Positions 5,675 to 60,658 of a stretch of 64,000 nt of DNA are shown one piece after another. Below the pieces are notes generated by a model. That model worked only from the letters and a program-made list of their open reading frames with translations, was not told where the DNA came from and ran no database searches. A program made the position numbers and the translations under genes. Location of the stretch: positions 8 through 64,007 of the forward strand of contig JAGPBS010000001.1 of NCBI GenBank assembly GCA_018063245.1, read 5' to 3'. The DNA comes from Alphaproteobacteria bacterium (lineage in GTDB: Bacteria > Pseudomonadota > Alphaproteobacteria > JAGPBS01). Positions within the stretch are counted from its first letter, which is position 1. Each line of letters begins with the position of its first letter.

Positions 5675-5782
5675 CGTCATTGCGAGCCCTTTAGGGCGTG
5701 GCAATCTACTTATTTAGTTTGATGAGATTGCCACGTCAGCTCCGTCTTCGCTCCGCTACGACGAGGCTTCCTCGCAATGACG
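5675..5782 (+). repeat. type-B palindromic element, copy B1 (adjacent to A1)
   Basis: CGTCATTGCGAGCCCTTTAGGGCGTGGCAATCT...AGATTGCCACGTCAGC...CCTCGCAATGACG, with perfect terminal inverted repeats CGTCATTGCGAG/CTCGCAATGACG. Confidence 0.8.
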
Positions 5783-5845
5783 TTCTTTTTCCTTGCCTTA
5801 TTATTGGCGTCCATATATGACGGGTGAGTGAATCGGCTATGTGAC

Positions 5846-7279: not shown

Positions 7280-7895
7280 TTTTTTTACGCAAACGCGTGA
7301 CTAGAATGTCAAAGGAGCGTGAGAAATAATCTGTTTGAAAAGCATTTGACAAGAGATCACGCGAGACCGGTTCTCCATTTTTCTCCCAAAGAATATGCAG
7401 AAACTTTGATTCCGTTTGGGTGAGGGGAATTTCAATCTGATCAATGAGCAGCTTTTGTTGCCCTGGGGAGAATTGCCAGAGGCCTTTTTTCAAGAAAAGA
7501 TTTGTGTGCGGTGCTTTTGTTTGATTCTGCCTTTTCAGAATCGATTTAATGCGGAGCAATAGTTCTTTCGGGTCAAATGGCTTTGCCAGATAGTCATCAG
7601 CGCCTTTCTCAAGGCCAGTGATTCTGTCTTCCGTATTGCCTCTAGCGGTCAATAGAAGGATCGGAACATCATTGTGGAATTTGTTCCGGATTTCATCTGT
7701 GAGTGAAAGACCATCTTGTCCAGGCATGGTGATATCCATAATGATGAGATCAAATCTTTGGTCTTTCAGAATTTTTTTAGCGGCATTTGCATTTTCTGCC
7801 GTTGTGACTAAGTAATCGTGATCAGAGATATAAGTGTGCAGCAGATCTCTCAATCTTTCATCATCATCAATAATTAAAATCGAAAAGTCTGACAT
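7200..7895 (-). CDS. OmpR-family response regulator
   Basis: Receiver domain MSDFSILIIDDDERL...DLIIMDITMPGQDG plus a winged-helix C-terminus. SD AAGGAAAG precedes the ATG at 7895. The ORF track extends to 7976 through a TTG. Confidence 0.85.
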   Translation of the reverse strand: MSDFSILIIDDDERLRDLLHTYISDHDYLVTTAENANAAKKILKDQRFDLIIMDITMPGQDGLSLTDEIRNKFHNDVPILLLTARGNTEDRITGLEKGADDYLAKPFDPKELLLRIKSILKRQNQTKAPHTNLFLKKGLWQFSPGQQKLLIDQIEIPLTQTESKFLHILWEKNGEPVSRDLLSNAFQTDYFSRSFDILVTRLRKKIGDDPKHPNYLKTIRNKGYLLLVPTL

Positions 7896-7909
7896 GTTGT
7901 CTTTCCTTG

Positions 7910-8599
7910 CTAAATATGATACTTCTGCTGTAATGATGCGTAGCTTTTCATCATGATAGGAAGGTAAGTTTTGCACTCGTTATATATCATATTTGCTGTA
8001 GGTTGCTTGTAAGTATGTGAGGTGAGATTGCGATTTTCCATCATTTTTAACCATACTGTTTCATCGTCGATCAATTTGAGAGCAAAGGATTGTTGAAAAG
8101 TTGCTCGAGGAGATTGAACCTCGATCCCTTCTTGATAGCAGATTTTTTTGAGCATTTTCCAATAAAGTTTAAAGCTATATTCAAAAATTTGAATTGTTGC
8201 TTCTGTTAGATAAGGGTGTTTATCTTTATCCATTTGTGAGACATCTTGAAATTTCTCAAGAGCTTCGCCTAGGTCTAAAAAGAGTTCGTACCAGTCATAA
8301 TTATTCTCAACTCTTTTAAAGAGAACAGACTTTGTTTTTTCAATGTCAGCTTTTAGGGCAGAATCTTTCAGTTGATCAAACCTGAGGCAGTCAATTTTTA
8401 AGAGAGTATCAGCAGAATCAATAATATTTCGAATATTTTGCCATTCTTCGCTTGTGGCCTTTGGACAGAGAATAGCCAAATCGATATCAGATCGTTCAAG
8501 AGATGTGTTTTTGGATCTTGAGCCAAATAACCATATTTCATTTACATAGGGAAGGCTTCGGAGACGATAATAGAATTCATATTGTTTGATAGAATGCAT
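7910..8599 (-). CDS. fused Pol-beta-type nucleotidyltransferase + HEPN/KNTase_C-like protein (MNT-HEPN or ANT-like)
   Basis: N-terminal LFGSRSKNTSLERSDIDLAIL matches the GS-x(9-10)-SDxD nucleotidyltransferase motif. The C-terminal helical region carries ENRNLTSH, an R-x4-H HEPN motif. Its start overlaps the upstream gene stop (TAATG), and its stop is 14 nt from the response-regulator RBS. Confidence 0.6.
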   Translation of the reverse strand: MHSIKQYEFYYRLRSLPYVNEIWLFGSRSKNTSLERSDIDLAILCPKATSEEWQNIRNIIDSADTLLKIDCLRFDQLKDSALKADIEKTKSVLFKRVENNYDWYELFLDLGEALEKFQDVSQMDKDKHPYLTEATIQIFEYSFKLYWKMLKKICYQEGIEVQSPRATFQQSFALKLIDDETVWLKMMENRNLTSHTYKQPTANMIYNECKTYLPIMMKSYASLQQKYHI

Positions 8600-9543
8600 T
8601 ATTTTTTCCTTTTTAGAGTTGGTGACTCTGTCATTTCTTGATCAGGGCAGACGTCAAGGAGTCGGATGCCTCTGACAGTTGTTTGATCTGGATCTTTGTA
8701 TTGTGCCAGATAATCTTCTAATAAAACATCTACAACTTGTTTAGGCTCATTTGAGGTTGCATGACGGAAACGAACTTGTCCATCATAGGCTCTGATTGTA
8801 AAACCAAGATGAGAAATCACAAGATCAGTTCCTGTGGACTCTTTCATGTTCCAATTGGGTCTGACAATCCAGAGGATTGTTCCTGTTTCGAGGAGTTTCA
8901 GTTTTTCAGGATTTTGGAGAAGATCTTGAATCGATAAGTAAGGGCAGGAAACGTTTTCACCTTTTAAACAATCGGGCATTTGATTATCATCTATCATTTT
9001 TTGAAGGAGGGCATCCCATTCTTCGCGTGAGTTAACTTTGTATTCTTTTTTGAGCTCATCAAAATGGGACTTTTCAAAAAAGCCCTTTGGGTCAGCAAAG
9101 GATTCAGCATGGTGAACTTGAATTTGCATTTGCTCTGCATAGCGTTCGGTTACGTCTTTGACAAGGCCTTTTTTGATATTTTCAGGAATCCAGCTTTGTT
9201 CAACAATATGATGACGACGTACGAAACCAACTTGCGCATCTTTATATCGAATTTGGTCCATTACACTCCGAATATTTTTCTCAGAAGCCTTGCGTGAGAA
9301 AGCAAGGACTGTCTCAACATAAGTGACACAATCAAACCCATCGTAACGGATTCTGCGGTCAGAATCATTTAATGGATTCTCAACATAAGGTTTTCCAAGA
9401 TACTGAGAGCTAAGTAATTCAATATCACTGCGTATTGAATCTGATGTTTTTTGTGTTGGCATTGAAAATAATCCTTGAATTGTTTTGTAATCGTTGTATA
9501 TTTCAGTAGGAGGCTTGGTTCTCATTTTAAATAATCTTCTCAC
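8599..9543 (-). CDS. hypothetical protein, possible papain/NlpC-P60-like cysteine hydrolase (tentative; family not identified)
   Basis: 314-aa ORF with YDGFDCVTYVETVLAF, a Cys-nucleophile-like motif. First gene of the minus-strand operon. The true start may be an internal Met (9525 or 9462). Confidence 0.4.
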   Translation of the reverse strand: MRRLFKMRTKPPTEIYNDYKTIQGLFSMPTQKTSDSIRSDIELLSSQYLGKPYVENPLNDSDRRIRYDGFDCVTYVETVLAFSRKASEKNIRSVMDQIRYKDAQVGFVRRHHIVEQSWIPENIKKGLVKDVTERYAEQMQIQVHHAESFADPKGFFEKSHFDELKKEYKVNSREEWDALLQKMIDDNQMPDCLKGENVSCPYLSIQDLLQNPEKLKLLETGTILWIVRPNWNMKESTGTDLVISHLGFTIRAYDGQVRFRHATSNEPKQVVDVLLEDYLAQYKDPDQTTVRGIRLLDVCPDQEMTESPTLKRKK

Positions 9544-9553
9544 TTAAGTATAG

Positions 9554-10558
9554 ATGATCGGGGTCATGAAAGTAAATACACCTTCAATGATTAAAATTAG
9601 ACACCTGGATGATAAAGGTGAATGTGTGCCGGGGCCGCTTCCTCAGACACGCAAAGTGAGTGGGAAAAATCATCATCATCAAAAAAGTTACGAGTGGATT
9701 CATCTGGAATCTCTGGATGAAGAAAATATTGCATGGCTTGAAGCAGAATCTAACATTCCGAAAGATATTCTGGAAAGCTTTATTACTGAGGACAGCCGGG
9801 CACGTTTAACGATATTTCCTGAAGGGATCTTTATTGTTTTAAAAGCTCTCAATTATGATCCGGGCCATGATATCGATGAAATGGCATCGATTCGTCTTTG
9901 GATTGATGATAATAAGCTGATTTCATCCCGCGTTCACAGAACAGGGACCTTTGAATACATAGAAGATAAGATTCGCCATAATAAATCGCCCAAGTCAATC
10001 GGGGAGATCATCATTATGATCGTCCAGAAGATTTATGATGAAATGGAAGAAACCATTCATGGTCTTGATGACAAGATTTATAAGATTGAGCAAAAGCTTC
10101 TTGATGATGAGGCTGATTATGAGCCTGGCGATTTTATCTCGTACCGCTTATTGAGTATTAACTTGCGTAAGAACTTGGTGCCTGAAATGTCTGTGCTGCA
10201 TGGTCTTGCGAATAGTGAGTTGACTTTTTTATCAAAGCAGCAGCGTTTGGTTCTAAAAGAACATACAGAATATTTCACTAAGCTGTTAGAGACTCTAAAT
10301 ACTTGCCGCGAGCGTTTGCACTATATCCAAGACGAGCGCGCAAATAAACTAACACAAAAAGTGAACTACAACATTTATGTGCTGTCAGTGATTACGGTTT
10401 TCTTCTTGCCACTCACCTTCTTTACAGGCCTATTAGGGATGAACTTGGCAGGTATCCCAGGAGCAGGCTCAGATAGCTCCTTTATATTCTATACCCTGAT
10501 TCTTGTTGCATTAGGCCTCGTTGAGCTATGGATATTGCGCAAAATTAAATGGGTGTAA
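9554..10558 (+). CDS. corA: CorA-family divalent cation transporter (CorA/ZntB superfamily)
   Basis: Two C-terminal TM helices with GMN signature FFTGLLGMNLAGIP, a long cytosolic N-domain and an acidic loop. The true start is probably MKVNT (9566) or MIKIRHLDD (9587), because the ORF start leaves only 10 bp between divergent genes. Confidence 0.8.
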   Translation: MIGVMKVNTPSMIKIRHLDDKGECVPGPLPQTRKVSGKNHHHQKSYEWIHLESLDEENIAWLEAESNIPKDILESFITEDSRARLTIFPEGIFIVLKALNYDPGHDIDEMASIRLWIDDNKLISSRVHRTGTFEYIEDKIRHNKSPKSIGEIIIMIVQKIYDEMEETIHGLDDKIYKIEQKLLDDEADYEPGDFISYRLLSINLRKNLVPEMSVLHGLANSELTFLSKQQRLVLKEHTEYFTKLLETLNTCRERLHYIQDERANKLTQKVNYNIYVLSVITVFFLPLTFFTGLLGMNLAGIPGAGSDSSFIFYTLILVALGLVELWILRKIKWV

Positions 10559-16397: not shown

Positions 16398-16585
16398 GGG
16401 ATTGCTCTTCTGGAAAGATGTTAGGCATATTATACAGATGAATCGTATATAAACCATTACCTCTCATAAATATAAACCTTCTGCATTGTCAATCTTTCTT
16501 TATTTATTTCTATTAAAATGAAAAAGAGAAAGTCTTTTTAATAAGTGCGGTGCTTGTTCATCGAAGATACGAGGAGGAGAGCCTT

Positions 16586-32757: not shown

Positions 32758-34068
32758 ATGTCTGTTAGCCAGTTTAGCCTGTTAAAAACAAGAAGGTTTT
32801 TACCTCTTTTTATTGTTCAGTTTTTGACGGCTTTCAATGACAATGCATTTAAGAACGCTTTTTTGATCTGGTTTACGTATGACCTTGTTCAATATTCTAC
32901 AATCAGTGCGCCTGTGATGGTGAATATCGCAGCGGCTCTTTTTATTGTACCATTCTTTTTATTTTCATCTATTGCGGGACAACTGGCGGATCGATTTGAT
33001 AAGGCTATTTTAACGCGCTATTTGAAATACGCAGAAATAATCTTGATGATTTTAGCAGCAGCCTGTTTTTATTTTAAGACGGTGACAGGGCTTTTAATTG
33101 TCTTATTCTTTTTGGGTGTGCAGGCCACTCTTTTTGGTCCAATCAAATATAGTCTTTTACCAGAGCAGCTTAAAGATAACGAGCTTATTGCAGGTAATGC
33201 CTTTATTGAAGGCGGTACTTTTTTAGCGATTCTGTTGGGGACAATCTTTGGCGGCCTTCTGGTGATGGGCAGTTTTGGGCGTGAGGCGATTGCCATTACG
33301 TTGATTTTGTTTGCTACAATTGGTTTGATCACAAGCTATTCAATGCCCCTTGCAAAAAAACGGCAAGTCGTAAAATCGACTCCATTTTCGTGGAATATTG
33401 TCACTGGAACAATGCAGATAATTGCTTATTCTCGTGAGACAAAAACGGTTTTTTATTCGATCATAGGCATTTCATGGTTTTGGCTTGTTGGCATTGTTTT
33501 TTTAAGTCAGTTTCCGATTTATGTGAAAGATGTGTTGCATGCGGATGAAGTGATTGTGACTCTGTTGCTGACCATTTTTTCTTTAGGGATTGGCATTGGT
33601 TCATTGCTTTGTAATCGTTTGCTCGATGGTAAAATTGATGGAAAGATGGTCCCCTATGGCGCGCTTGGGATGACTTTGTTCATCTTTTTGTTTACGCTCG
33701 GGAGTCACTTCTATAAGCATACTTACGTAGAGCAGCCAATCTTGATGCTTTTTGATTTTCTAAGATTTGGCTTTCCGGCCTATCTGATTTTATTGGGTCT
33801 GATTGGCCTTGCGATCTGTGGAGGGATTTATATTGTTCCTCTTTATGCAATCATGCAGCATCGCTCAAATCAGGCTCATATGGCGCGTGTTGTTGGTGCA
33901 AATAATGTTTTCAATGCTCTCTTTATGGTTATAGGAAGCGTTGGAACGGTGGGACTCTATGCACTCAATTTATCAGCTGTTGAAATTTTGTTTCTTGTCG
34001 GTCTGTTCAATGTTGGCGTCTTTTTTGTTGTTCAGCATATTGTAAGGCGGGAGAGAAAGCATGCTTAA
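32758..34068 (+). CDS. lplT: lysophospholipid transporter LplT (MFS)
   Basis: 12-TM MFS protein. Its 3' end overlaps the start of aas, the canonical lplT-aas pair. Confidence 0.8.
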   Translation: MSVSQFSLLKTRRFLPLFIVQFLTAFNDNAFKNAFLIWFTYDLVQYSTISAPVMVNIAAALFIVPFFLFSSIAGQLADRFDKAILTRYLKYAEIILMILAAACFYFKTVTGLLIVLFFLGVQATLFGPIKYSLLPEQLKDNELIAGNAFIEGGTFLAILLGTIFGGLLVMGSFGREAIAITLILFATIGLITSYSMPLAKKRQVVKSTPFSWNIVTGTMQIIAYSRETKTVFYSIIGISWFWLVGIVFLSQFPIYVKDVLHADEVIVTLLLTIFSLGIGIGSLLCNRLLDGKIDGKMVPYGALGMTLFIFLFTLGSHFYKHTYVEQPILMLFDFLRFGFPAYLILLGLIGLAICGGIYIVPLYAIMQHRSNQAHMARVVGANNVFNALFMVIGSVGTVGLYALNLSAVEILFLVGLFNVGVFFVVQHIVRRERKHA

Positions 34069-36196
34069 ATCTGTTTTGAAATTGTTCTTTACTGTTTTTT
34101 TTCGTATCAAAGTGATAGGCATTGAAAATTATGTCAAAGCAGGTAAGCGTGTCTTGGTTGTTGTGAATCACCTATCTTTTATCGACGCGATTGCCATTGC
34201 TTTGTATTTACCTGGCAAGCCCATGTTTGTTGTGAATAGCTTTATTGCGGATCATTGGCTCTTTAAACGCGCTCTTTCTTTTGTGAGATATTTTGCCCTT
34301 GATCCGACCAATCCTATGGCTACCAAAGATGTGATTCATGCGCTGCAGCAAGATGAAATCTGTGTGATTTTTCCAGAGGGTAGAATCACAGTGACGGGAT
34401 CACTCATGAAGATCTATGAAGGACCTGCGATGATTGCTGATAAATCCGGCGCTCAAATATTGCCGATTCGGATTGAAGGAGCGCAATATAGTCCTTTTTC
34501 ACGATTAAAGGGAAAGGTACGCATTCGTCTTTTCCCGAAGATTACGATTCATATTTTACCGCCCCGTGTTTTGAATGTGGAAAAGGATATGATGGGTCGA
34601 GAAAGACGCCATGCTTCAGGCGTGAAACTTTATGATGTGATGAGCGAGATGTATTTTGAGAGCTCTGATTACCAAAAGACACTTTTTCATTCGATCATTG
34701 ACATGATGTCTATTCATGGTCGAGACCATTATATTATGGAAGATATCTTGCGTCATCCTATCACTTACGGTCAATTTGTTGCGCGTAGTTTTATTCTGGG
34801 AAAGGCCTTTGTTCGATTTACTCAGAAAGATGAAATAGTTGGTCTATTGTTACCAAATATGATCAGTTCAGTGATTGCTTTTTTTGGACTTCATGCCTAT
34901 GGACGCGTTCCTTCCATGTTGAATTTCTCAGTAGGTGCCCACAATCTGACCCTGGCGGTTGAAGTCGCAAAAATCAAAACAGTGGTTACATCAAGGCGTT
35001 TTATTGCAACAGGTGAGTTAGAGCCGTTGGTTGAGGCTTTAGAGGCAAAAGGCATTATTATTCAGTATTTAGAAGATCTGCGCGATTCAATTTCTTTATT
35101 GGCGCGGATGACAGGCTTTGTGAAGTCATATGTGCCTCTTTTCTTTTACAAAAAGCAGAGACGTCTTGATTCAAAAGATGCAGCCGTTGTTCTTTTTACC
35201 TCAGGCTCGGAGGGCGTGCCTAAAGGGGTTGTTCTCTCGCACGAGAATATCCAAGCCAATCGCTTTCAGCTCGCATCGCGCGTTGATTTTGGTCCAACGG
35301 ATATTGTTTTTAATGCTTTGCCGATCTTCCATTCATTTGGCCTTACGGGCGGAACTCTTCTGCCGCTTCTTGCGGGCATTAAAACATTTTTTTATCCATC
35401 CCCTTTGCATTATCGAATTATTCCGGAATTGGTTTATGATCGCAATGCAACGATCATGTTTGGGACCGATACATTTTTGTCAGGCTATGCCAAATATGCG
35501 CACCCTTATGATTTTTATTCCATTCGCTATGTTTTTGCCGGCGCTGAAAAGCTGAAGGAGGAGACACGTAAAGTTTGGTCTGAAAAATATGGCGTGCGTA
35601 TTTTTGAAGGCTATGGCGCAACGGAAACGGCACCTGCTTTGTCAACAAATACACCAATGCATAATAAGCCAACAACAGTGGGCCGGCTTTTGCCATCAAT
35701 TGACTATCGGATTGAAAAAGTACCAGGCGTTGAGGCAGGAGGGCGTCTCTTTGTAAAAGGCCCAAATGTGATGAAGGGATATTTATTGCATGATGAGCCT
35801 GGTGTGATTGTGCCGCCGAAAGATGGATGGTATGACACAGGTGATATTGTTGATTTTGATGAAGAGGGATTTATATCCATTAAAGGCAGAGCAAAGCGTT
35901 TTTCAAAAATTGCTGGTGAGATGATTTCACTGACAGCTGTTGAAAAATTTATTGCAGACCTATGGCCCCAATATCAACATGCTGTGGTCGCGGTCCCTGA
36001 TGAGAAAAAGGGTGAGGCTTTGGTTCTTTTGACAAATTATGTTGGCGTGAATCGCGAAGAGATCAGTCTTTTTGCAAAACAAAATGGGATTACAGAGCTT
36101 TCTGTGCCAAGAGTTGTTAAATATCTTGAGAAGATGCCGATTCTGGCGACTGGTAAAGTTGATTATGTCGCCTTGCAGAAATTGGTGTCTCTCTAG
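34061..36196 (+). CDS. aas: bifunctional 2-acylglycerophosphoethanolamine acyltransferase / acyl-ACP synthetase Aas
   Basis: N-terminal PlsC HxxxxD motif VVNHLSFIDAIAI, then an AMP-binding domain (LFTSGSEGVPKGVVLSHENI; GYGATETAP). Confidence 0.85.
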   Translation: MLKSVLKLFFTVFFRIKVIGIENYVKAGKRVLVVVNHLSFIDAIAIALYLPGKPMFVVNSFIADHWLFKRALSFVRYFALDPTNPMATKDVIHALQQDEICVIFPEGRITVTGSLMKIYEGPAMIADKSGAQILPIRIEGAQYSPFSRLKGKVRIRLFPKITIHILPPRVLNVEKDMMGRERRHASGVKLYDVMSEMYFESSDYQKTLFHSIIDMMSIHGRDHYIMEDILRHPITYGQFVARSFILGKAFVRFTQKDEIVGLLLPNMISSVIAFFGLHAYGRVPSMLNFSVGAHNLTLAVEVAKIKTVVTSRRFIATGELEPLVEALEAKGIIIQYLEDLRDSISLLARMTGFVKSYVPLFFYKKQRRLDSKDAAVVLFTSGSEGVPKGVVLSHENIQANRFQLASRVDFGPTDIVFNALPIFHSFGLTGGTLLPLLAGIKTFFYPSPLHYRIIPELVYDRNATIMFGTDTFLSGYAKYAHPYDFYSIRYVFAGAEKLKEETRKVWSEKYGVRIFEGYGATETAPALSTNTPMHNKPTTVGRLLPSIDYRIEKVPGVEAGGRLFVKGPNVMKGYLLHDEPGVIVPPKDGWYDTGDIVDFDEEGFISIKGRAKRFSKIAGEMISLTAVEKFIADLWPQYQHAVVAVPDEKKGEALVLLTNYVGVNREEISLFAKQNGITELSVPRVVKYLEKMPILATGKVDYVALQKLVSL

Positions 36197-36248: not shown

Positions 36249-36338
36249 CGTCATTGCGAGCCCTTTAGGGCGTGGCAATCTCATTGTAATTAAGAAAGAA
36301 GATTGCCACGTCAGCCTCCGGCTTCCTCGCAATGACGG
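36249..36338 (+). repeat. type-B palindromic element, copy B2
   Basis: CGTCATTGCGAGCCCTTTAGGGCGTGGCAATCTC...AGATTGCCACGTCAGCCTCCGGCTTCCTCGCAATGACGG. Confidence 0.8.
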
Positions 36339-36447: not shown

Positions 36448-37761
36448 CTAAAACTGAAAGTCTCTTGTTGGATACAAGGCTCTCATTTCTTGCCAAAGCT
36501 GTTTTATGTCAACTCCAATTTGGTTAAACCCAAGATTAAGGCTTGTCAGCGTCCTGTTCACTTTGAGAGCCTCAGCAAAAGCTTTTGCGCCTTTATCTCC
36601 AATTTTGTTGCACCCAAGATCAAGACTTGTCAGCGTCGTGTTCATGGTAAGGGCATAAGCAAGGGCTTTTGCGCCTTTATCTCCAATTTGGTTAAACCCA
36701 AGATGAAGACTTGTAAGCGTCTCGTTCATATCAAGAGCCTTTGCAAGAGCTTTTGCACCTTTATCTCCAATTTCGTTAGCATTAAGATGAAAGCTTGTTA
36801 ATGTTTCGTTCTCTTTGAGGGCATCAGCAAATACTCTTGCATCTTCGTCTCTCATTTGAGCAGATACAATTTCAAAGCTTGTCAGTGTCTTGTTTATTTT
36901 AAGAGCGTCAGCAAACAATATTGCGCCTTCGTGCCCAATATTATTCATTACAAGTTCAAATCTTTTCAGGGTCTCGTTTTCTTTCAGAGCCTCAGCTAGG
37001 GTTCGTGCCCCTTCAGCTTTAACTTCGTTAAGTCCAAGATAAAGGCTTGTCAGCGTTCGGTTCTCTTTGAGGGCATCAGCAAGCACCTGTGCGCCTTCAT
37101 CTCCAACTGAATTGTCTTCAAGCTCAAGATTTGTGAGCGTTTTATTCACTTTAAGAAAACCTGCAAGTACTTCTGTGCCCGTAGTATTCATTTTATAAAA
37201 GATTTTGATCTGCGTGATAAAAGTCTGCTTTTGGAACATGACAGAAAGCTCTTCTTGATTTTGGATCTCGAAGAGATACCAGAGCCCGAACATTTCGTAG
37301 AGGGTGATATCTTTAGAATGAGCCACTGTTTTTGAAAGAAAATCTTCCAATTTCATGAATGGCATTCTATTTTCTGCCACTTTTTGAATGATTGGTTTCA
37401 TGTAAGAATTGAAGATGTCAGCATCAAAGACAGCCTCTGTCGAACAGAGCATTTTGATTTCTTGAAAAAGAGGGAGAAAAGCATCAAATGTCTGAGCTTC
37501 TCTCAGTTTTTGCTCTATTGTTGGTTGAAGGAGCCTCATCTTGATATCCAATGTCAATAGAGTGTTTTGAATGGTTCCCACTCTTTCAGCAAGTGGTAAC
37601 TTATTGAACTCACCCAATTGATATGTAAAAGCAATGTCAGATAATTTAGGGATTTGCTTTCCTACGACTGCTTGAATTGAGTGTGTCCTTTGCTCTTGGA
37701 GTCCAGCGGTTGAACTGAGTTCTTTTAGTGGATTTAAATGTGTCATGTCTGTATCTTTCAA
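36448..37761 (-). CDS. ribonuclease-inhibitor-type (RI-like) leucine-rich-repeat protein, eukaryote-like putative effector
   Basis: At least 10 tandem 28-aa repeats of the form LTSLxLGxNxIGDKGAKALAxALxxNxTLTSL. The plus-strand ORF 36490..36801 is the antisense of these repeats. The start is ambiguous (TTG at 37761 or ATG at 37746). Confidence 0.75.
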   Translation of the reverse strand: MKDTDMTHLNPLKELSSTAGLQEQRTHSIQAVVGKQIPKLSDIAFTYQLGEFNKLPLAERVGTIQNTLLTLDIKMRLLQPTIEQKLREAQTFDAFLPLFQEIKMLCSTEAVFDADIFNSYMKPIIQKVAENRMPFMKLEDFLSKTVAHSKDITLYEMFGLWYLFEIQNQEELSVMFQKQTFITQIKIFYKMNTTGTEVLAGFLKVNKTLTNLELEDNSVGDEGAQVLADALKENRTLTSLYLGLNEVKAEGARTLAEALKENETLKRFELVMNNIGHEGAILFADALKINKTLTSFEIVSAQMRDEDARVFADALKENETLTSFHLNANEIGDKGAKALAKALDMNETLTSLHLGFNQIGDKGAKALAYALTMNTTLTSLDLGCNKIGDKGAKAFAEALKVNRTLTSLNLGFNQIGVDIKQLWQEMRALYPTRDFQF

Positions 37762-37888
37762 GTTATAAGAGGTCTATAAAATATATTTTGCAAAGAATGC
37801 ACCAACTCAATTGTATTTGCAATCAATATTGAAACAATTTTGCAGAATAGATTCATAAACCTGCTGTGAATAGAATTCGCCAGATCAG

Positions 37889-38607: not shown

Positions 38608-40521
38608 CTAGAATTCAAGTGCGTAATGGACTTGAATTTGCTTCTCACGAGAATGCGCTTTATTGTCAGAAAAATCAAGATTGAAAAACAAACCTCCTAT
38701 TTTTTCAAAGGCGAGATCAGCTTCATAATGCATGTTCACAAATTGATTCTGAGATTGATTTTTAAAGGAGGCACGGCTGCGATCAAACTGATAGGCATGT
38801 TGACTTTCTGCAGTGCTGTGCGTGAGGCCTAATTTTAGATGATGGCTCAAAAAACCAAGGTGTGTTTTTTGAGATGGTAAGAAAAACTGTCCGCCAAGAC
38901 TGTATGCTTCTTTCTTGTAGCTTTGATTTTTTTCAGTAAGAGATGAACAGGATCCACTATTCAAGCGATCATGATGATGAGATGAAAACTCAACAAGAGG
39001 GCCATAAAGAAAATGTCCATTTGTCATCAGTGATCCCATTTCAATAAAGATATTTTGACTCTGTCCCCGATGCGAGCTTGAATCCTTGCCGTAAGATTGC
39101 CTGCCGAGGCTGAGTCCCCAATCAAGATAATGTGTGGTTTTGGCCTTTGATAGATAATCGATAGATCCCGAGATGCCGACTTCTTGATGGGACAGAGAGG
39201 TTGAAGATGAGAGATTTGAATCCGCAATATGCGTAAAGGCACCGATGGAAAATGTATTATTCAATTGATAGTTCAGATGAACCCGGTGCGCATCAAGCGA
39301 TTTGGATCCTTTGTGTTTTTCACGCTCTTGAAAGGAGAGGGGTTTTTCAAGGGCTGTTGATTGCGCGCTGATCAAGAGAGTATTTTGCGTTGAATCATTC
39401 TGATTTAACTGTGCATAAATTGATTTTTGAGTCACCGAAGGAGATTGCCTGCGCAGTCCTTTTCCATCAAGACTTCGAGAGAGCCGCTTTTGCTGAATGG
39501 GTGATAGAACAAGGCTTTTTGTTTGCGCTTCAAGTTGATCCATCAGAGGAAGAAACGTATCGTTTTTACTCAATTTTTTAGCTTCTTCAAAAGCTTTTTG
39601 AGAAAGATAATAATGAACGGCCGCTGATGGATGGACATCATCTGCATAAAACCAAGCGCCATCAATTTTGCCATCTTGACGATTGAGAGCATCCGTTGTG
39701 TTTGAAAAGCCATAGTGCTCAGGATCAGCGAGCATCGCCTCAATGCTTGAAAAAATATCCACAATTTCAATGCCTTGTTCGGGGCCTAAATTTTCTCTGA
39801 GTGTTGCAACGGAAGCCGAGAGCGCCTGATTATGGCTGACAGAAAATTGTCTCATGATTCGCTTGAGATTATCGACTTCTTTTTGTGTTAAGTTTGGGAA
39901 GAGTTCTGAGATTCTTTTGATAATGGGTGTTTTTGAAAAATCAGGTAAGTTGGCAATTAAGAGAGAATCTGCGCCCGCATTTAAAAGTGTTTCCATACCT
40001 TGTGATATGTTTTGAACAGATTCTGTTACGTGAGAGCGAAATTTAGAGGCGAAGTCTTGAATCGCCTCAGGACTTTTTGATGTTGCCATGAGTTGATAAA
40101 ATCGAGGATTTTGGAAGAGGCTTAGATAATCATTTGCGCCTGCATATAAAAGGATGAGATCTGTTGATTTAGGATCATGCTCATTGGTAAAGAGTCCAAT
40201 TTGTTGAGTCAGCATTGGTACTGGAGATTTTAAAAGGGCACCAAAACTTGCATGAGGTCCTGTGAGAGCGCCACCAAAAGCATAATTGAGAACTTGTTCA
40301 TTTGACATATTGAGGGAGCTTTTCAAATGATCAATATAGATAGGTCCATTGGTAAAGCGCCCGCTCCATCTTTTGTCTTGATCAACGGGCTTCACATTTC
40401 CTGTATCGGAGAGGGAGTCTCCAAAGACGATCATTCTGTCAAAACCAGCCATTGCATTGTGTGATGTCATGGCGATGATAAGGGCGAAAAAAAACACCAG
40501 ATAGAATCTTACATAGACCAT
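38608..40521 (-). CDS. autotransporter SGNH/GDSL lipase-esterase (EstA/ApeE-like)
   Basis: Signal peptide, GDSL block I FGDSLSDTGN, block V DDVHPSAAVH, and a C-terminal beta-barrel ending ...HYALEF. Strong SD AAGGAGAG precedes the ATG at 40521 (the ORF track extends to 40554). Confidence 0.85.
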   Translation of the reverse strand: MVYVRFYLVFFFALIIAMTSHNAMAGFDRMIVFGDSLSDTGNVKPVDQDKRWSGRFTNGPIYIDHLKSSLNMSNEQVLNYAFGGALTGPHASFGALLKSPVPMLTQQIGLFTNEHDPKSTDLILLYAGANDYLSLFQNPRFYQLMATSKSPEAIQDFASKFRSHVTESVQNISQGMETLLNAGADSLLIANLPDFSKTPIIKRISELFPNLTQKEVDNLKRIMRQFSVSHNQALSASVATLRENLGPEQGIEIVDIFSSIEAMLADPEHYGFSNTTDALNRQDGKIDGAWFYADDVHPSAAVHYYLSQKAFEEAKKLSKNDTFLPLMDQLEAQTKSLVLSPIQQKRLSRSLDGKGLRRQSPSVTQKSIYAQLNQNDSTQNTLLISAQSTALEKPLSFQEREKHKGSKSLDAHRVHLNYQLNNTFSIGAFTHIADSNLSSSTSLSHQEVGISGSIDYLSKAKTTHYLDWGLSLGRQSYGKDSSSHRGQSQNIFIEMGSLMTNGHFLYGPLVEFSSHHHDRLNSGSCSSLTEKNQSYKKEAYSLGGQFFLPSQKTHLGFLSHHLKLGLTHSTAESQHAYQFDRSRASFKNQSQNQFVNMHYEADLAFEKIGGLFFNLDFSDNKAHSREKQIQVHYALEF

Positions 40522-40562
40522 CTTTCTCTCCTTAATCGTAGAATCAGGAATCAACTCTAAGG

Positions 40563-41288
40563 CTATTGTCCTTTTGCAGGATTTGCTGTTGTGTTTTCAG
40601 CAGAAGCAGGTTTTGTGTCAGCTGGTGTTGTCTTTGCTGCCGCTGGAGAACTTGTTGCAACGCCTTTGATTTCGCCTGTCTTTACGGTTTTATCTTTAAT
40701 CACAACTTTACCATTGCCGCTTTCAAAAGTGATTGAACCTGTGATATCTGTTTTGCCTTTTAGCTCAACAATTTGCTGTTTTGTGGCATCAGTACTTTTT
40801 TTGATCAGAATCGATTCTGCTTTACAATTGCTCAGTTCCATTTTTTCAACTTCAGCAATGATTGCTTTGAAGGTTGAATCTTCAGCGTCAAATTCACCTG
40901 AAGCTGTCACGGTGTCACCAAAAGTTGATTTTTTAATCTTTGTGTTGCCGTTTATGGTCGTTTGTTTTGTAATTGAGACTGATTCAAGTTCAGTGTCGCC
41001 ATTGCTTGTAAAAGAGCCAGTAAAACTTGACTTTTCAACTTCTGTTTTACCGTTAAAGGTTCCATCTTGTAATTCTGAGTCTTTAATATCTGCATCACCC
41101 ATAGATGTGAGTGATTGTGCCAGTTTGCTTTTGTCAATTTTCAAGCGACCCATAGAAGTGACAGCCTCTTGAAATGTTTGATTTTTAAGCTCAGCATCGC
41201 CCATAAATTGAGCAGGGCCTGCATAGCTTGCTAAAGGGCTAAAGGCAATGAGTGAAACACTGAGAAGAAGAGATTTAGAAAAAGACAT
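40563..41288 (-). CDS. secreted repeat protein (GD-x-[ED]-[LI]-K...TF repeats; possible beta-helical fold)
   Basis: Signal peptide MSFSKSLLLSVSLIAFSPLASYA with SD AAGGAG. Repeated MGDAELKNQTF / MGDADIKDSELQDGTF / NGDTELESVSI / SGEFDAEDSTF. It lies 8 bp upstream of the lipase gene. Confidence 0.55.
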   Translation of the reverse strand: MSFSKSLLLSVSLIAFSPLASYAGPAQFMGDAELKNQTFQEAVTSMGRLKIDKSKLAQSLTSMGDADIKDSELQDGTFNGKTEVEKSSFTGSFTSNGDTELESVSITKQTTINGNTKIKKSTFGDTVTASGEFDAEDSTFKAIIAEVEKMELSNCKAESILIKKSTDATKQQIVELKGKTDITGSITFESGNGKVVIKDKTVKTGEIKGVATSSPAAAKTTPADTKPASAENTTANPAKGQ

Positions 41289-45425: not shown

Positions 45426-46778
45426 ATGACACAAAATAATGATATTCAAAAACGTTTAGATTTTTTGGGCATTAATGACGGTGTGCGGAGTACATTAAGA
45501 GAATTTAAGCCAATTGCAGCCAGGGCATTGGGTCCGATTTTAGATGGTTTTTATGCTCATATTAGTGGATGGTCTGATTTAGCAAAAATGTTTGGTAGTC
45601 AAGACCGTATAAATTATGCAAAACAAAAGCAGATTGACCATTGGATGAATATTCTGAATGGGACTTTTGATGACTCATACGTTGAATCTGTTACAAAAAT
45701 CGGGATGACCCATAATCGTTTGGGACTTGAACCAAGATGGTATATTGGGGGCTATAATTTTATCGGCATAGGTCTGATTGCTGAGGCTGTGAAATATTAT
45801 CAAAAGGGGTGGAGCCATAAAAAAGCGCAAGAAAACATTATTCGGACCGCTGATGCGATTAATAAAGCGCTTATGCTTGATATGGATTTTGCAATTTCAG
45901 TTTACCTAGAAGCGCAGGCAGATGATCGAAAAAATTTATTGAATCAACTTGGGTCAGAATTTGAAGGATCGGTCAAAAAAGTTGTTGATAATGTCATTAG
46001 TTCTGCAACATCCGTTCAGAATCATTCAGAGGTGATGGTGAGAAACACTGATCTTGTAAATCAACAATCATCAACAGCGGCAGCTGCATCAACACAAGCT
46101 TCTTCAAATGTTCAAACCGTCTCAGCGGCAGCAGAAGAACTGTCAGCATCAATTCAGGAAATCTCACGTCAAGTGCAGCAATCGAACCAAATGACAAAGA
46201 ATGCAAGTGATGTTGCGCGTCAGACAAATGAGACAGTGTCTGGTCTTGTTGAAGCTGCTCAGAAAATTGGTGAAGTTGTTGGGATTATTAATGACATTGC
46301 AGATCAAACAAATCTCCTTGCACTGAATGCAACGATTGAAGCTGCACGTGCAGGTGAGGCAGGTAAAGGATTCGCAGTTGTTGCGAATGAAGTGAAGTCA
46401 CTTGCCAATCAAACGGCAAAATCAACAGATGAAATTAATGAGCAGATTTTAAACATCCAAAAAGTGTCTGAGGAAGCCGCTGTTCAAATTCGGAATATTG
46501 CAGATACGATTGCTCAGATTAGCGAAATTTCAGGCAGTATTGCAGCTTCAGTTGAAGAGCAAAGTTCTGCAACAGGTGAGATTGCTCGCAATGTTCAGCA
46601 AGCATCACAGGGTACATCTGAGGTTTCACAAAGTGTTGAAAGCATGAATCGTGCGACACATGAAACAGAACAAGGGGCACGTGAGTTGGTTAATTCCTCA
46701 AAAGAACTCCTCTCACAAGCTGATGAGTTAAATCAGGATGTTGATGCTTTCTTGAATAAAATTCGGACAGCTGCTTAG
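45426..46778 (+). CDS. globin-coupled sensor methyl-accepting chemotaxis protein (HemAT-like)
   Basis: The N-terminal ~175 aa match the protoglobin/GCS pattern ([13 protein letters not shown]..., FYAHI..., [41 protein letters not shown]), with a proximal His candidate in MTHNRLG. The C-terminal MCP signalling domain has the highly conserved [32 protein letters not shown]. Confidence 0.8.
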
Positions 46779-51856: not shown

Positions 51857-51944
51857 CGTCATCGCGAGGAGCGATAGCGACGTGGCGATCTTGTATAGTG
51901 AGATGAGATTGCCACGGCGCAACAAGGAGCGCCTCGCAATGACG
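51857..51944 (+). repeat. type-B palindromic element, divergent copy B3
   Basis: CGTCATCGCGAGGAGCGATAGCGACGTGGCGATCT...GAGATTGCCACGGCGCAACAAGGAGCGCCTCGCAATGACG. Confidence 0.7.
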
Positions 51945-54575: not shown

Positions 54576-55763
54576 TTAGAGCGATTTAGATGCCCGAGGA
54601 GCGATTCGTTTGGGAAGCATCTTTTGCGCTGCTTCTTCGTAGCCATTTTTTGCTGCTTCTTGAAACCAAAAGTAGGCTTTTGTGAGGTTTTGATGAGGTC
54701 CTGTCATTTCATAAATCTCAGCAAGCTCAAATTGAGCCTCTACGTATAGTTCTGTCGCTTTTGTTAAATAAGCGATTGCTGTTTCAAGTTCTTTTTCTTC
54801 TTTATAAACAAGGCCTAGCTCTAATTGAGACTCACCGTGCCCATTGTCAGAGGCTCTTTCTAAGTAGAACATTCCTTTATCATAATCTTCAGGTGTGTTG
54901 ATTCCATGGAGATACATACATCCCAATTTGTGTGTGGATGGATTAAAATTATGATCAGCAGCAATTTGATAGTAGGCTATTGCTTTTTGAATGTTAATCT
55001 CTGTACCAAAGCCAAGTTCAAACATGACACCAAGTTGATGATTTGCTTTGATGTGGCCTTTCTGTGCTGCATTTAGAAAACACTCAAATGCAGTTTCTCT
55101 AGGATTTTCAAATTCAGGAAACTCTATATGGACCATTCCAAGATAAAATTGAGCCTCTGCACTCCCTTGGGATGCAGCCTTAACCAAGTAGTCTTTTGCT
55201 ATGCCTAAATCCCTGCCGACAAGCTCTCCTTTACGGTAATGAATACCTAAATAAAGCTGTGCAGTCATGTCATTTTCTTTTGCAGCCTCGGTCCATAGCT
55301 CAATGATTCTATTTCTTATATCTGCGTTTAAGTTAATGCTTGGTTCAGTATTATAGATAAAGCCAAGGATGACCTTTGCAGGGGTAAAATTGAGCTCTGC
55401 AGAAATCTCAAGATAATGAATTGCTTTTGTAAGCTGTTTTGCATCATCATTAATTTCATAATGCTTAATCCCCAAATTGTATAGAGCTTCGGGATGCTCT
55501 AGATTAGCTGCTTTTTGAAGATACACATTTGCTTTTGCATCGTCTGTTGTATTGACATAAAGGTCAAAATAATAATCACCGTCTTTTTCATGCTTAAGGC
55601 GTTTAGCTGCAGAGTCTCGGCTCATGATGGTTTTAATATCAACCTTTACTGAAGGTTGAGTGGATTCGATATTTCTTTTTGTGGCCTTCTCAATACTGAT
55701 ATTTTCATCAGTTTGAGTTAGATTTTGGGTGTTTGAGTTGGTATTAAATTGAATGCCTGACAT
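54576..55763 (-). CDS. Sel1-repeat (TPR-like) protein, ~9 repeats
   Basis: Recurring A-x-x-Y-L-G-x-x-Y Sel1 motifs, e.g. AQFYLGMVHIEF, AQLYLGIHYRKGELVGRDLGIAKDYLVKAASQG, AQFELAEIYEMT. Confidence 0.8.
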   Translation of the reverse strand: MSGIQFNTNSNTQNLTQTDENISIEKATKRNIESTQPSVKVDIKTIMSRDSAAKRLKHEKDGDYYFDLYVNTTDDAKANVYLQKAANLEHPEALYNLGIKHYEINDDAKQLTKAIHYLEISAELNFTPAKVILGFIYNTEPSINLNADIRNRIIELWTEAAKENDMTAQLYLGIHYRKGELVGRDLGIAKDYLVKAASQGSAEAQFYLGMVHIEFPEFENPRETAFECFLNAAQKGHIKANHQLGVMFELGFGTEINIQKAIAYYQIAADHNFNPSTHKLGCMYLHGINTPEDYDKGMFYLERASDNGHGESQLELGLVYKEEKELETAIAYLTKATELYVEAQFELAEIYEMTGPHQNLTKAYFWFQEAAKNGYEEAAQKMLPKRIAPRASKSL

Positions 55764-58783: not shown

Positions 58784-60658
58784 TTAACCTTGAGCCTGAT
58801 CTTTATAAAAGGCGATGAGTGTTTTTCTGATATCCGCTAGAGCGCCTTTATCGAGATGAGTCTCGCCCTTGTGCGGGGCATGAGCACCAATTGTATAGTT
58901 ACCTAAAGTCACACGATCGATACCACCACTTTTAGACATTTGACGACTTGTCGCTTCTTTTGTTGTTTTGAGATACTGAACAAAAGTTTGTAAGTTTTCT
59001 TTTGTCACTTTTCCTTTTGTCATAATCTCATTGTAGATTTTTTTGATCTGGTTTGGGGCTTTTTGTATATAGAATCTTTCAATTCTTGTTTCTTCCTCTT
59101 TGAGTTGTTTTGTAAGATCTTGAATGACGCGTTGTGTATCTTGTATCCGCGTTTTGATTTTAACAGTTGGTTCTTTTTTTACTTTTGGGATCGCTTGCGC
59201 AGCAGGTGTTTGTTTGGGTGGCTCAGGATTTTCTGCAACCGTTGGCACTTCTACAGTTTCAGCTTCAGCTTCAGGTTCTTGGGATTGTGGTTTTTTCTTT
59301 TGTGGCTTTGAAGGCATAGCGAGTTGATATGACTCAGCGATTTCTTCTTTGGTTGGTTGTCTGATTTTGTAGCGTCGTGAAATTTCTGAGAGAGATTTGC
59401 TGAGTTTGATCATTAAATCATGCAGCATCATAATATATTTGGGGTAATAATAGATGATTTCATTCTCAGAAAGCGTAAAGACGAGATCAAGCATGTCGAG
59501 CGTTGCGAGAGCTTTTTCAGGTGATAGTTCTTGCATTGCAAGTGTTTCAAAGACAGGGCGAAACATCTGTAAAGCAAATTTAAAACGATTGACTGTCTCA
59601 GGTTTGCGGATGTCTACTGGTCTTTTGAGATAAGGGGTGATGAGTTTTTCATAAATAATTTCAATTGTCATGAGTTTAACAGGAAGCATCTGTCGGCGAC
59701 TTGGATGATTTAGATATTGGACATATTCAAGCGCTTTTTCAATGTTCGAATAGGGCATTCCTGGTTGCGCTAAATAGGCTGCGAGCTGTGCGTAGCCTGC
59801 CATGACAAAGCCAATCGGTGTTTTGAAAGGAGTTTCTTGAAGCAAGTTTTCTTGTCTGACTTCTTTGAGCCAATTATTAAGAATCGTCATTGCTTTGTTA
59901 GCGTTTTTTTCGGTGCCTTGTCCAAAGAAATGGCAGATAGACAGAAAGAGTTTAACTTCTTTAAAGCCGCCATCTTCCTCGATTTCTGTGAAGTAATTAA
60001 AGGCTTTTTTGAAATCTGCTTCATTGCCTTCCAGCTCGGCACTTTCATAGTAGATGATGCCCAAATCTAAAAGTCCAATGGTACGAACTGGTTTCTGAGG
60101 GTTTTCATGAGCAAGGTTTAACATAAAGATGGCTTTATCTAGATCCGCTTCTGAACGCCCTGATTTGGTATAATAATATTGGCCAACAGCAAGTTGAGCG
60201 CGCCAGAATTTTTTTGTAGCACTGATTTCTAAAAAGGAAAGACCTTCTTGAATCGATCCTTGGTCCATCAGCTGTGTTCCATATTCGTAACAAGCGGTCA
60301 CATCTTGATGCTCAGTTGCCATTCTTTTAATAAGCTCTGCTTCAAATGCATCTGGGTCCTCTGTCACAAAGGGGGCAAGAGTTCGCATTGTTGCAAGATT
60401 CGGAGAATTGAGATGCGCAATGCGCGATAGGTAAAACTCTTTTCTCTTTACGTTTTTGAGACAAAAAGTATAGGCAATGTCTCTTTCAAGAAGCGGAATA
60501 TTTTCGACCGTGAAGGTTTGAGGATTTTGAAAACGGGTGAGAATGTCTGTGAGTAATATTTTGATGGCCGGGGTGTCATAGGTTTGAATCCATGCGTGTG
60601 CATCATAGATAAGTGTTGTGATCTCTGGTGTTAAATGTTTTTCAAATGCGCTCATCAA
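58784..60658 (-). CDS. large hypothetical protein with Sel1-like repeats, a Pro/Glu-rich linker and a C-terminal coiled coil; putative effector
   Basis: AQLAVGQYYYTKSGRSEADLDKAIFMLNLA is Sel1-like. A PQKKKPQSQEPEAEAETVEVPTVAENPEPPKQTP segment follows. Directly upstream of clpB. Confidence 0.55.
   Translation of the reverse strand: MMSAFEKHLTPEITTLIYDAHAWIQTYDTPAIKILLTDILTRFQNPQTFTVENIPLLERDIAYTFCLKNVKRKEFYLSRIAHLNSPNLATMRTLAPFVTEDPDAFEAELIKRMATEHQDVTACYEYGTQLMDQGSIQEGLSFLEISATKKFWRAQLAVGQYYYTKSGRSEADLDKAIFMLNLAHENPQKPVRTIGLLDLGIIYYESAELEGNEADFKKAFNYFTEIEEDGGFKEVKLFLSICHFFGQGTEKNANKAMTILNNWLKEVRQENLLQETPFKTPIGFVMAGYAQLAAYLAQPGMPYSNIEKALEYVQYLNHPSRRQMLPVKLMTIEIIYEKLITPYLKRPVDIRKPETVNRFKFALQMFRPVFETLAMQELSPEKALATLDMLDLVFTLSENEIIYYYPKYIMMLHDLMIKLSKSLSEISRRYKIRQPTKEEIAESYQLAMPSKPQKKKPQSQEPEAEAETVEVPTVAENPEPPKQTPAAQAIPKVKKEPTVKIKTRIQDTQRVIQDLTKQLKEEETRIERFYIQKAPNQIKKIYNEIMTKGKVTKENLQTFVQYLKTTKEATSRQMSKSGGIDRVTLGNYTIGAHAPHKGETHLDKGALADIRKTLIAFYKDQAQG

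Follow-up and report, generated by a model that had tools for sequence, protein, structure and literature searches.

What does a protein built from ribonuclease inhibitor (RI)-type leucine-rich repeats (LRRs) do in a bacterium, and how much of it is eukaryote-like at all? The question is raised by a minus-strand gene in a 64-kb stretch of an alphaproteobacterial contig (JAGPBS010000001.1; hereafter the window means this whole stretch), which an original prediction, made from the sequence, had described as encoding an RI-type LRR protein with a eukaryote-like repeat architecture. Our analysis confirmed the repeats and placed them in a small bacterial family with a head domain of its own. We favor, with a probability of roughly 0.55, a role as a secreted host-targeting effector or mimic that would bind and block a partner protein.

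The open reading frame (ORF) spans 36448..37761 and encodes 437 amino acids when counted from a TTG codon. Since an ATG five codons 3' of this TTG (giving MTHL...) is the start in the record annotation and in every homolog, the gene is best taken to begin there, at 37746. Read from this ATG, the protein has 100% identity to P0001, its counterpart in the record, and the identical sequence is on record as a hypothetical protein in two metagenome-assembled genomes (MAGs) named "Alphaproteobacteria bacterium" (locus-tag prefixes KBE16 and KBF71).

The claimed 28-residue repeats of the RI/NOD-like receptor (NLR)/RanGAP type are real. The motif L[TK]x[LF] occurs eight times from residue 204 to residue 400, spaced by exactly 28 residues with no insertions or deletions, and the consensus of 65 units from the family described below, L-T-S-L-x-L-x-x-N-x-I-G-D-x-G-A-x-A-L-A-E-A-L-K-x-N-x-T, reproduces the motif that had been quoted. 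At the DNA level, Tandem Repeats Finder reports a period of 84 bp. In a Pfam scan, LRR_6 scored 148.4 bits over seven stretches (E 5e-45; cut-off, 23.4), with LRR_8 at 18.3, under its cut-off of 27, and LRR_4 at 29.5; the sequence matches in the PDB were RI, NLRP3, DRC5, LRRC34, and GALA. The RI-like (RNI-like) class of Kobe and Kajava has repeats of 28 to 29 residues, fits LRR_6 over "typical" or bacterial LRR models, and forms a horseshoe to which each unit contributes a concave β-strand and a convex full α-helix. All of these features are found here, and they indicate that the repeat type is genuinely the "eukaryotic" RI class.

An AlphaFold2 model computed with an 11-sequence family alignment (predicted local distance difference test score [pLDDT] of 85; predicted template modeling score [pTM] of 0.80) showed these repeats to be part of a larger structure. 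A disordered leader precedes five helices. Starting near residue 130, strands and helices then follow each other in turns of about 28 residues, three of them degenerate and the next eight canonical, up to a cap helix and a final strand to which the conserved tail ...YPTRDFQF gives rise. In structural comparison, about 300 residues can be aligned, and the solenoid therefore reaches past the obvious repeats, to about 11 turns. Its top structural matches are the LRR domains of NLRs, and the best eukaryotic ones include axonemal LRR proteins. There is no Sec signal and no hydrophobic N-terminal region in this protein or its family; across the family, the leader has a maximum 12-residue hydropathy below 1.0 and consists to 35 to 50% of S, T, Q, N, and P. 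The protein is soluble, lacks a Sec signal and a catalytic domain, and forms one continuous RI-class binding scaffold. The earlier observation and its interpretation are supported so far as stated, yet half of the protein was missed: the conserved disordered leader, the five-helix head, and the three degenerate LRRs. The leader may be an export signal or a linear motif, and one may speculate, from its composition, that it resembles N-terminal export signals.

The architecture is eukaryote-like in its repeats only, whereas residues 1 to 200 form a lineage-specific bacterial module without a eukaryotic counterpart. A profile of this N-terminal module, searched against 1.84 billion proteins (1.84e9), retrieved 19 cluster representatives, 17 of them below 1e-10 and none a eukaryotic relative, and recovered the LRR protein itself at 290 bits. 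LRR_6 repeats follow the module in every member long enough to judge. These proteins, which we refer to as the MTHL-head family, share MT[HY]L at the extreme N terminus, IPKL at the start of the head, and a tail of the form [YVH]P-x-[RK]-x-[FI]-x-[FL]; the LRR protein has the complete set of leader, IPKL, five-helix head, degenerate LRRs, LRR_6 units, and tail. Modeled alone, the head reaches a pLDDT of 82. Its fold gave only generic helical-repeat matches (Z ≤7.8), Pfam searched at E values up to 1 returned no family common to the members' head or module, and the best hit of a PDB profile search, Listeria LntA at E 0.08, was set aside as noise. An F-box, BTB, U-box, or NACHT-associated domain was likewise rejected for the head by sequence and fold comparison. 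The head and the conserved termini are the family-constant parts, for which capping, export, and docking of a second partner are candidate roles.

The family is rare. As to related bacteria, back-translated module patterns run over 185,579 species-representative genomes, a collection with no close relative in it, gave 195 pattern matches, none of them to a relative; in an earlier scan with a broader alignment, no stretch was conserved enough to serve as a query. Within one genome, at least five dispersed paralogs with 4 to about 13 repeats (P0135, P0136, P0137, P0138/9, and P0061) sit at unrelated housekeeping loci. Homologs carry the automatic Joint Genome Institute (JGI) label "Ran GTPase-activating protein," and some metagenomic ones pair LRR_6 with NACHT. 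The family is a small, rare, paralogous, and previously undescribed member set within a known kind, the eukaryote-like LRR proteins of intracellular bacteria.

In the 65 units of the family, L1, L4, L6, G15, A20, L23, N26, and T28, all of them scaffold positions, are invariant or nearly so (entropy of about 0), and the most variable positions, with entropies of 2.9 to 3.8 bits, are 5, 7, and 8, which lie in the concave-face strand and the loop that follows it. This is the pattern that would be expected of a ligand-binding surface differing among units and paralogs. The number of units varies as well. In a second strain, assembled as a 2.07-Mb contig, the protein matches at every one of the 432 residues (100% identity) and differs only by a single extra 28-residue unit. 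The 84-bp indel is the sole difference between the two strains within a 2.8-kb identical block, its junction falls in a 40-nucleotide (nt) exact direct repeat of neighboring units, and each allele, with eight or nine units, is present in several assemblies; a real copy-number polymorphism is more likely than assembly collapse. The two strains are identical across 7.3 kb save for four patches (35449-35485, 35836-36193, 39031-39352, and 40195-40661), which are short and hold all 111 mismatches in the comparison with locus L090; within aas and the gene for the GDSL lipase, the strains diverge locally by up to about 15%. The pattern suggests a mosaic produced by recombination imports, with a diverged relative as the source. 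Because the strains are identical outside these patches, the absence of substitutions from the LRR gene is background, and we rejected it as a signal of selection.

A eukaryotic origin of the repeats does not follow from their class. A source organism was named for 49 of the top 120 sequence matches, about 39 of them eukaryotic (including Capsaspora "NOD3," rotifers, Mortierellaceae, Gigaspora, plants, and NLRC3) and about 10 bacterial (the MAG's own paralogs, Rickettsiaceae MAGs, the Rickettsiales endosymbiont of Stachyamoeba, and two other MAGs), in a ranking by total score that favors proteins with many repeats. Scored per unit on the family profile, bacterial proteins reach 34.7 and eukaryotic ones 27.9 bits in a small sample biased toward top matches, and the units of the Stachyamoeba lipophora endosymbiont (CP033611) and of Rickettsiaceae MAGs, at 27 to 39 bits, score as high as or above eukaryotic units. 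The gene itself has a native G+C content and codon usage (G+C of 0.399, G+C at third codon positions [GC3] of 0.358, codon usage rank 12 of 48 genes). Since bacterial per-unit scores equal or exceed eukaryotic ones and codon usage is native, no eukaryotic donor, direct or recent, is demonstrated, and the native composition together with the presence of the same locus in independent assemblies excludes contamination and recent acquisition. A pool of RI repeats shared by intracellular bacteria would account for the evidence no less well than would their direct acquisition from a eukaryotic donor. "Eukaryote-like" top matches alone do not demonstrate eukaryote-to-bacterium transfer. A literature search combining "RNI-like" with bacteria found nothing, and the same was true of one for the assembly and run accessions.

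Evidence from the genome, which measures about 2.07 Mb at 40% G+C and belongs to an uncultured alphaproteobacterium, points to a host. A TLC-family ATP/ADP translocase (PF03219, 502 amino acids; L092 2281-3789) adjoins the paralog P0136 (4001-5383); such translocases are a hallmark of intracellular energy parasitism. In the window, two Sel1/tetratricopeptide repeat (TPR) proteins flank clpB (54576-55763 and 58784-60658, both on the minus strand), one scoring 124 bits for Sel1 and the other 27, with a cut-off of 30.7. Sel1 repeat proteins are typical of host-associated bacteria, and Sel1 and LRR proteins are numerous in this genome. A second LRR protein encoded in the window belongs to another class (382 amino acids; LRR_14, 35.7 bits, below its cut-off). 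The closest relatives of aas and lplT, which lie beside the LRR gene, are found in Coxiellaceae, Midichloriaceae, Jidaibacter, Holosporaceae, Rickettsiaceae, Berkiella, and Legionellales MAGs, and these mixed intracellular affinities hint at a shared gene pool for lysophospholipid recycling. Read together, the translocase, the Sel1 and second LRR proteins, and the affinities of aas and lplT indicate a lifestyle that is probably host associated and intracellular.

Several known systems resemble the MTHL-head family in part. Ralstonia GALA/RipG type III effectors combine 24-residue cysteine-containing-type (CC) repeats with an N-terminal F-box that recruits host SKP1. Set against these (PDB 9j7j), the LRR protein has RI-type repeats with a period of 28 instead of 24-residue CC-type ones, and no N-terminal F-box. 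With the eukaryotic RI class (RNH1; the LRR domains of NLRC3, NOD2, and the NLRPs; RanGAP1; LRRC34; DRC5) it shares repeat class, period, horseshoe geometry, and a near-identical unit consensus, but it lacks a NACHT domain and, apparently, a RanGAP acidic tail, and its turns, only 11 or so, do not alternate between A/B units of 28 and 29 residues. The layout of an RNH1 ortholog, with 15 to 16 alternating A-type (28-residue) and B-type (29-residue) units in about 450 amino acids and no extra domain, is not found here. The five-helix head is absent from all eukaryotic RI-class proteins compared, and the gene is bacterial in context and composition. The RI-type and F-box-LRR proteins of CP033611 and the Rickettsiaceae MAGs have the same repeat type and come from alphaproteobacterial endosymbionts, but their N termini are F-box or unrelated, and neither the MTHL...IPKL head module nor the ...FQF tail is present in them. 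At the CP033611 locus (L089 4001-7750), two tandem RI-type LRR genes, one with a weak F-box match, stand beside a resolvase gene and a gene for a 1,577-amino-acid protein without a domain match.

A possible mechanism for such a scaffold is provided by LegL1, a translocated Legionella LRR protein that arches over the active site of RavJ and blocks it sterically (PMC5199130). LegL1 (Legionella pneumophila lpg0945; PDB 4xa9) is shorter, at 296 amino acids, and has no five-helix head, conserved leader, or ...FQF tail; it is a proven type IVB (Dot/Icm) substrate encoded beside its target ravJ, whereas the MTHL-head family is multicopy and its export a prediction. The family organization resembles that of the NEX1/PEX1 proteins of amoeba-associated Parachlamydiaceae, expanded families in which an F-box, U-box, or BTB domain is followed by a variable number of LRRs (PMC4209131). 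The likeness lies in a conserved N-terminal module joined to a C-terminal LRR array of variable length, present in several copies in a protist-associated intracellular bacterium. The MTHL-head module differs in being neither F-box, BTB, nor U-box by sequence or fold, in numbering about 5 copies per genome versus 70 to 140, and in belonging to an alphaproteobacterium and not to a chlamydia. The LRR-rich genomes of Neochlamydia offer a further parallel (PMC3991601).

On the model of these systems, the bacterium would deliver the LRR protein into the cell of a eukaryotic host, most likely a protist, where its concave β-sheet face would bind a partner protein stoichiometrically and either sequester it or block it sterically. 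Ribonuclease inhibitor acts on RNases in this way. Ligand specificity would be held by the hypervariable strand and loop positions of each unit and could be diversified by gene duplication and by the addition or removal of entire 84-bp units when near-identical repeats recombine or undergo slippage. A more elaborate version would make the family an undescribed effector class of one protist-associated alphaproteobacterial lineage, in which the leader is the export signal, perhaps acting through a flagellar-type apparatus, the head is a new docking domain, the paralogs are coregulated through an upstream box, and gain and loss of 84-bp units is a contingency mechanism that retunes host-target binding; that all of this should hold jointly seems to us rather improbable.

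A number of observations weigh against the effector role. No secretion system or chaperone adjoins the LRR gene. Substrates of type IV secretion usually have a free C-terminal tail, and here the C terminus is modeled as a structured cap, which points away from a classical C-terminal type IV signal. RI-type LRRs occur in free-living bacteria too, and the repeat type alone is no proof of host targeting. The organism has kept flagellar export genes and a chemoreceptor and so need not be an obligate endosymbiont; the receptor, a protoglobin-methyl-accepting chemotaxis protein (HemAT-like aerotaxis receptor; 45426-46778, plus strand), is unexpected in a strongly host-restricted bacterium. In principle, the difference in repeat number might be an artifact of assembly, as the 40-nt junction repeat exceeds the k-mers of some assemblers.

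Some of these points would sit more easily with a protein that never leaves the cell, acting as an adaptor, inhibitor, or regulator of a bacterial protein, such as a nuclease or toxin inhibitor or a flagellar or chemotaxis assembly factor. In keeping with this, no secretion signal is recognizable, the C terminus is structured, axonemal proteins are among the best eukaryotic structural matches, and one paralog, P0004 (L086 3717-5549), has a Fic/HTH pair nearby and the flagellar export genes flhB, fliR, fliQ, and fliE about 3 kb away (adjoining region with the intervening genes, 5716-10549). We nevertheless consider an intrabacterial role unlikely: the family is multicopy and lineage restricted, with a hypervariable concave face and a labile repeat number; it co-occurs with the TLC translocase and Sel1 proteins and is absent from the species-representative genomes scanned; no toxin or nuclease gene adjoins the LRR gene; and PADLOC gave no match. 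A secreted LRR protein might also act inside the host on a second effector from its own bacterium, inhibiting it as LegL1 does RavJ. The Legionella gene legL1 (lpg0945) adjoins ravJ (lpg0944), however, whereas the neighbors here are lipid-metabolism housekeeping genes, the paralogs have unrelated neighbors, and no candidate enzyme partner was found, all of which makes such a metaeffector a doubtful proposition.

Placing the LRR domain on the bacterial surface, where it would bind a host receptor in the manner of internalins, appeals to the classical role of bacterial LRR proteins as adhesins and invasins and to a GDSL lipase, possibly autotransporter-like, encoded two genes away; it is very unlikely nonetheless, an envelope location being already improbable from the sequence. 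Still less probable is a part as the sensor arm of an antiphage defense system of the STAND (signal transduction ATPases with numerous domains)/NLR type. The NLR domains that lead the structural matches and the metagenomic homologs combining LRR_6 with NACHT would speak for it, but Pfam detects no NACHT/NB-ARC NTPase in the LRR protein, nor do its neighbors have an NTPase domain; the head matches neither a NACHT nor an HD-like fold; and neither PADLOC nor PHROGs returned a match. That eukaryotic DNA was mis-binned or misassembled into a bacterial contig would account for the many eukaryotic proteins among the top-ranked LRR matches and can practically be dismissed, since the gene has the same bacterial neighbors in independent assemblies, one of them with a single contig of 2,075,286 bp, has native composition and a bacterial gene structure with a Shine-Dalgarno sequence, and begins with a module that has no eukaryotic relatives. 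A secreted, host-targeting binding protein is the reading that we retain.

Eukaryote-like repeat proteins are the main clue to host manipulation by uncultured intracellular bacteria. To these the MTHL-head family adds a cleanly delimited and very rare module fused to RI-class LRRs, as well as a natural case of repeat-number change between near-identical strains. It is a well-documented case of an established phenomenon and implies no new mechanism; the noteworthy details are the novel head module, the conserved termini, the shared upstream region, and the one-unit repeat polymorphism. If export and a host target prove true, the family would offer a handle on the biology of its alphaproteobacterial lineage. 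The features of the gene and its flanks are collected in Table 1.

Table 1. Positions in the window of the LRR gene, the parts of its product, and the adjoining elements
Feature	Position	Strand	Remarks
LRR coding sequence, stop included	36448..37746	-	432 amino acids from ATG; all family members begin MT[HY]L
Leader, residues 1-33, disordered, with conserved extreme N terminus MTHLxPL and no hydrophobic core	37648..37746	-	pLDDT 24-32
Five-helix head, residues 34-128, family specific, starting at the conserved IPKL motif	37363..37647	-	
Three degenerate LRR turns, residues 129-203, extending the solenoid upstream of the canonical repeats	37138..37362	-	
Eight canonical 28-residue RI-type LRR units, residues 204-427; the last merges into the C-terminal cap helix	36466..37137	-	pLDDT 90-98
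Residues 428-432 (RDFQF) and stop; end of the conserved tail ...YPTRxFQF	36448..36465	-	Modeled final capping β-strand, residues 429-431, pLDDT about 77-79
84-bp tandem array, 3.2 units, 82% identity (82% matches)	36513..36778	-	Strain copy-number difference at about 36705
Upstream region, about 110 nt, common to same-genome paralogs	37747..37856	-	
Nested palindromic repeat element between aas and the LRR gene (convergent intergenic)	36249..36337	.	

The upstream region is alignable in four closer paralogs, the other copies lying at L086 3607-3716 and, in both L092 and L093, at 3891-4000. It contains the boxes TTGCAAAT(G/A)(T/C)AATT, ATATTTT(C/T)ATA, and TTAT(G/A)AC and a GAAAG Shine-Dalgarno sequence. 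Identity in this region ranges from 0.60 to 0.78 and, in the most divergent pairs, equals or exceeds that at third codon positions; the region is conserved to the same degree as the coding DNA. These values lend modest support to a shared regulatory region, perhaps a promoter, an operator, or a 5' untranslated region. A scan for sigma-70 promoters gave no upstream site on the strand of the LRR gene.

The palindromic element that had been reported to flank the 3' end of the gene also exists, 111 nt past the stop codon; "type-B" was a label of the original prediction's own. It consists of the nested inverted repeats CGTCATTGCGAG/CTCGCAATGACG and CGTGGCAATCT/AGATTGCCACG and has an RNA fold energy of -45.6 kcal/mol (z = -7.0). 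Three copies lie in the window (about 5676-5781, 36249-36337, and 51858-51943), the dispersed element being made up of the terminal inverted repeat CGTCATTGCGAG and the inner repeat GTGGCAATCT/AGATTGCCAC, and its terminal 11-mer occurs 7 times versus 1.2 expected. A link between this element and the LRR paralogs was rejected: the terminal repeat is not found beside the other paralogs, and the same terminal repeat pair is present at a locus of the Rickettsia endosymbiont of Halotydeus destructor (L054 10335-10509). Rfam gave no match anywhere in the window, this element included, and there is no canonical terminator downstream of the LRR gene besides it. It would be an unrelated dispersed repeat that may serve as a terminator or mRNA-stabilizing hairpin.

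The window is otherwise an ordinary stretch of bacterial chromosome of about 40% G+C. Around the LRR gene, the order is cytochrome bc1, a major facilitator superfamily (MFS) transporter (LplT-like), an Aas-like acyltransferase/acyl-acyl carrier protein (ACP) synthetase, the LRR gene, a carboxylesterase, a GDSL lipase, TerC, and ribonucleotide reductase; housekeeping genes, among them those for ClpB, serine hydroxymethyltransferase (SHMT), and Tol-Pal, occupy other parts of the window. The nearest named bacteria by ClpB are Rhodospirillales (Stellaceae and Azospirillum; 65 to 67% identity), and closer matches are metagenome sequences. The MFS and Aas-like genes (32758-36196, plus strand) overlap by 8 bp. 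Nothing above 65% identity to aas was found among the species-representative genomes, and aas, used as a synteny anchor, led to 80 named loci (best identity, 65%), most of which keep the lplT-aas pair. The LRR gene, its N-terminal module, and the carboxylesterase and GDSL neighbors are found at none of these 80 loci, among which there is no close relative genome. Plasmid-borne relatives of the LRR protein comprise only the Ralstonia GALA type III effectors and a few Rickettsia and Candidatus plasmid records.

Further genes near the family members or elsewhere in the window deserve mention. A 1,038-amino-acid Sel1-like protein is encoded on the other side of the P0136 locus (L092), and an AAA_14/DUF4143 protein and a GIY-YIG/Fic/HTH_3 trio lie between P0004 and the flagellar genes. 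The GDSL lipase gene (38608-40554, minus strand) has its Pfam domain only in residues 42 to 316 of 648, and the long C-terminal half may form an autotransporter-like barrel. At 16550-21385 (plus strand), two large ORFs without a Pfam match (573 and 444 amino acids) and a 148-amino-acid ORF precede the gene for the second LRR protein, and together they may form a further effector-like gene cluster. Proteins of the LRR_14 type are also encoded near paralogs in L003 and L093.

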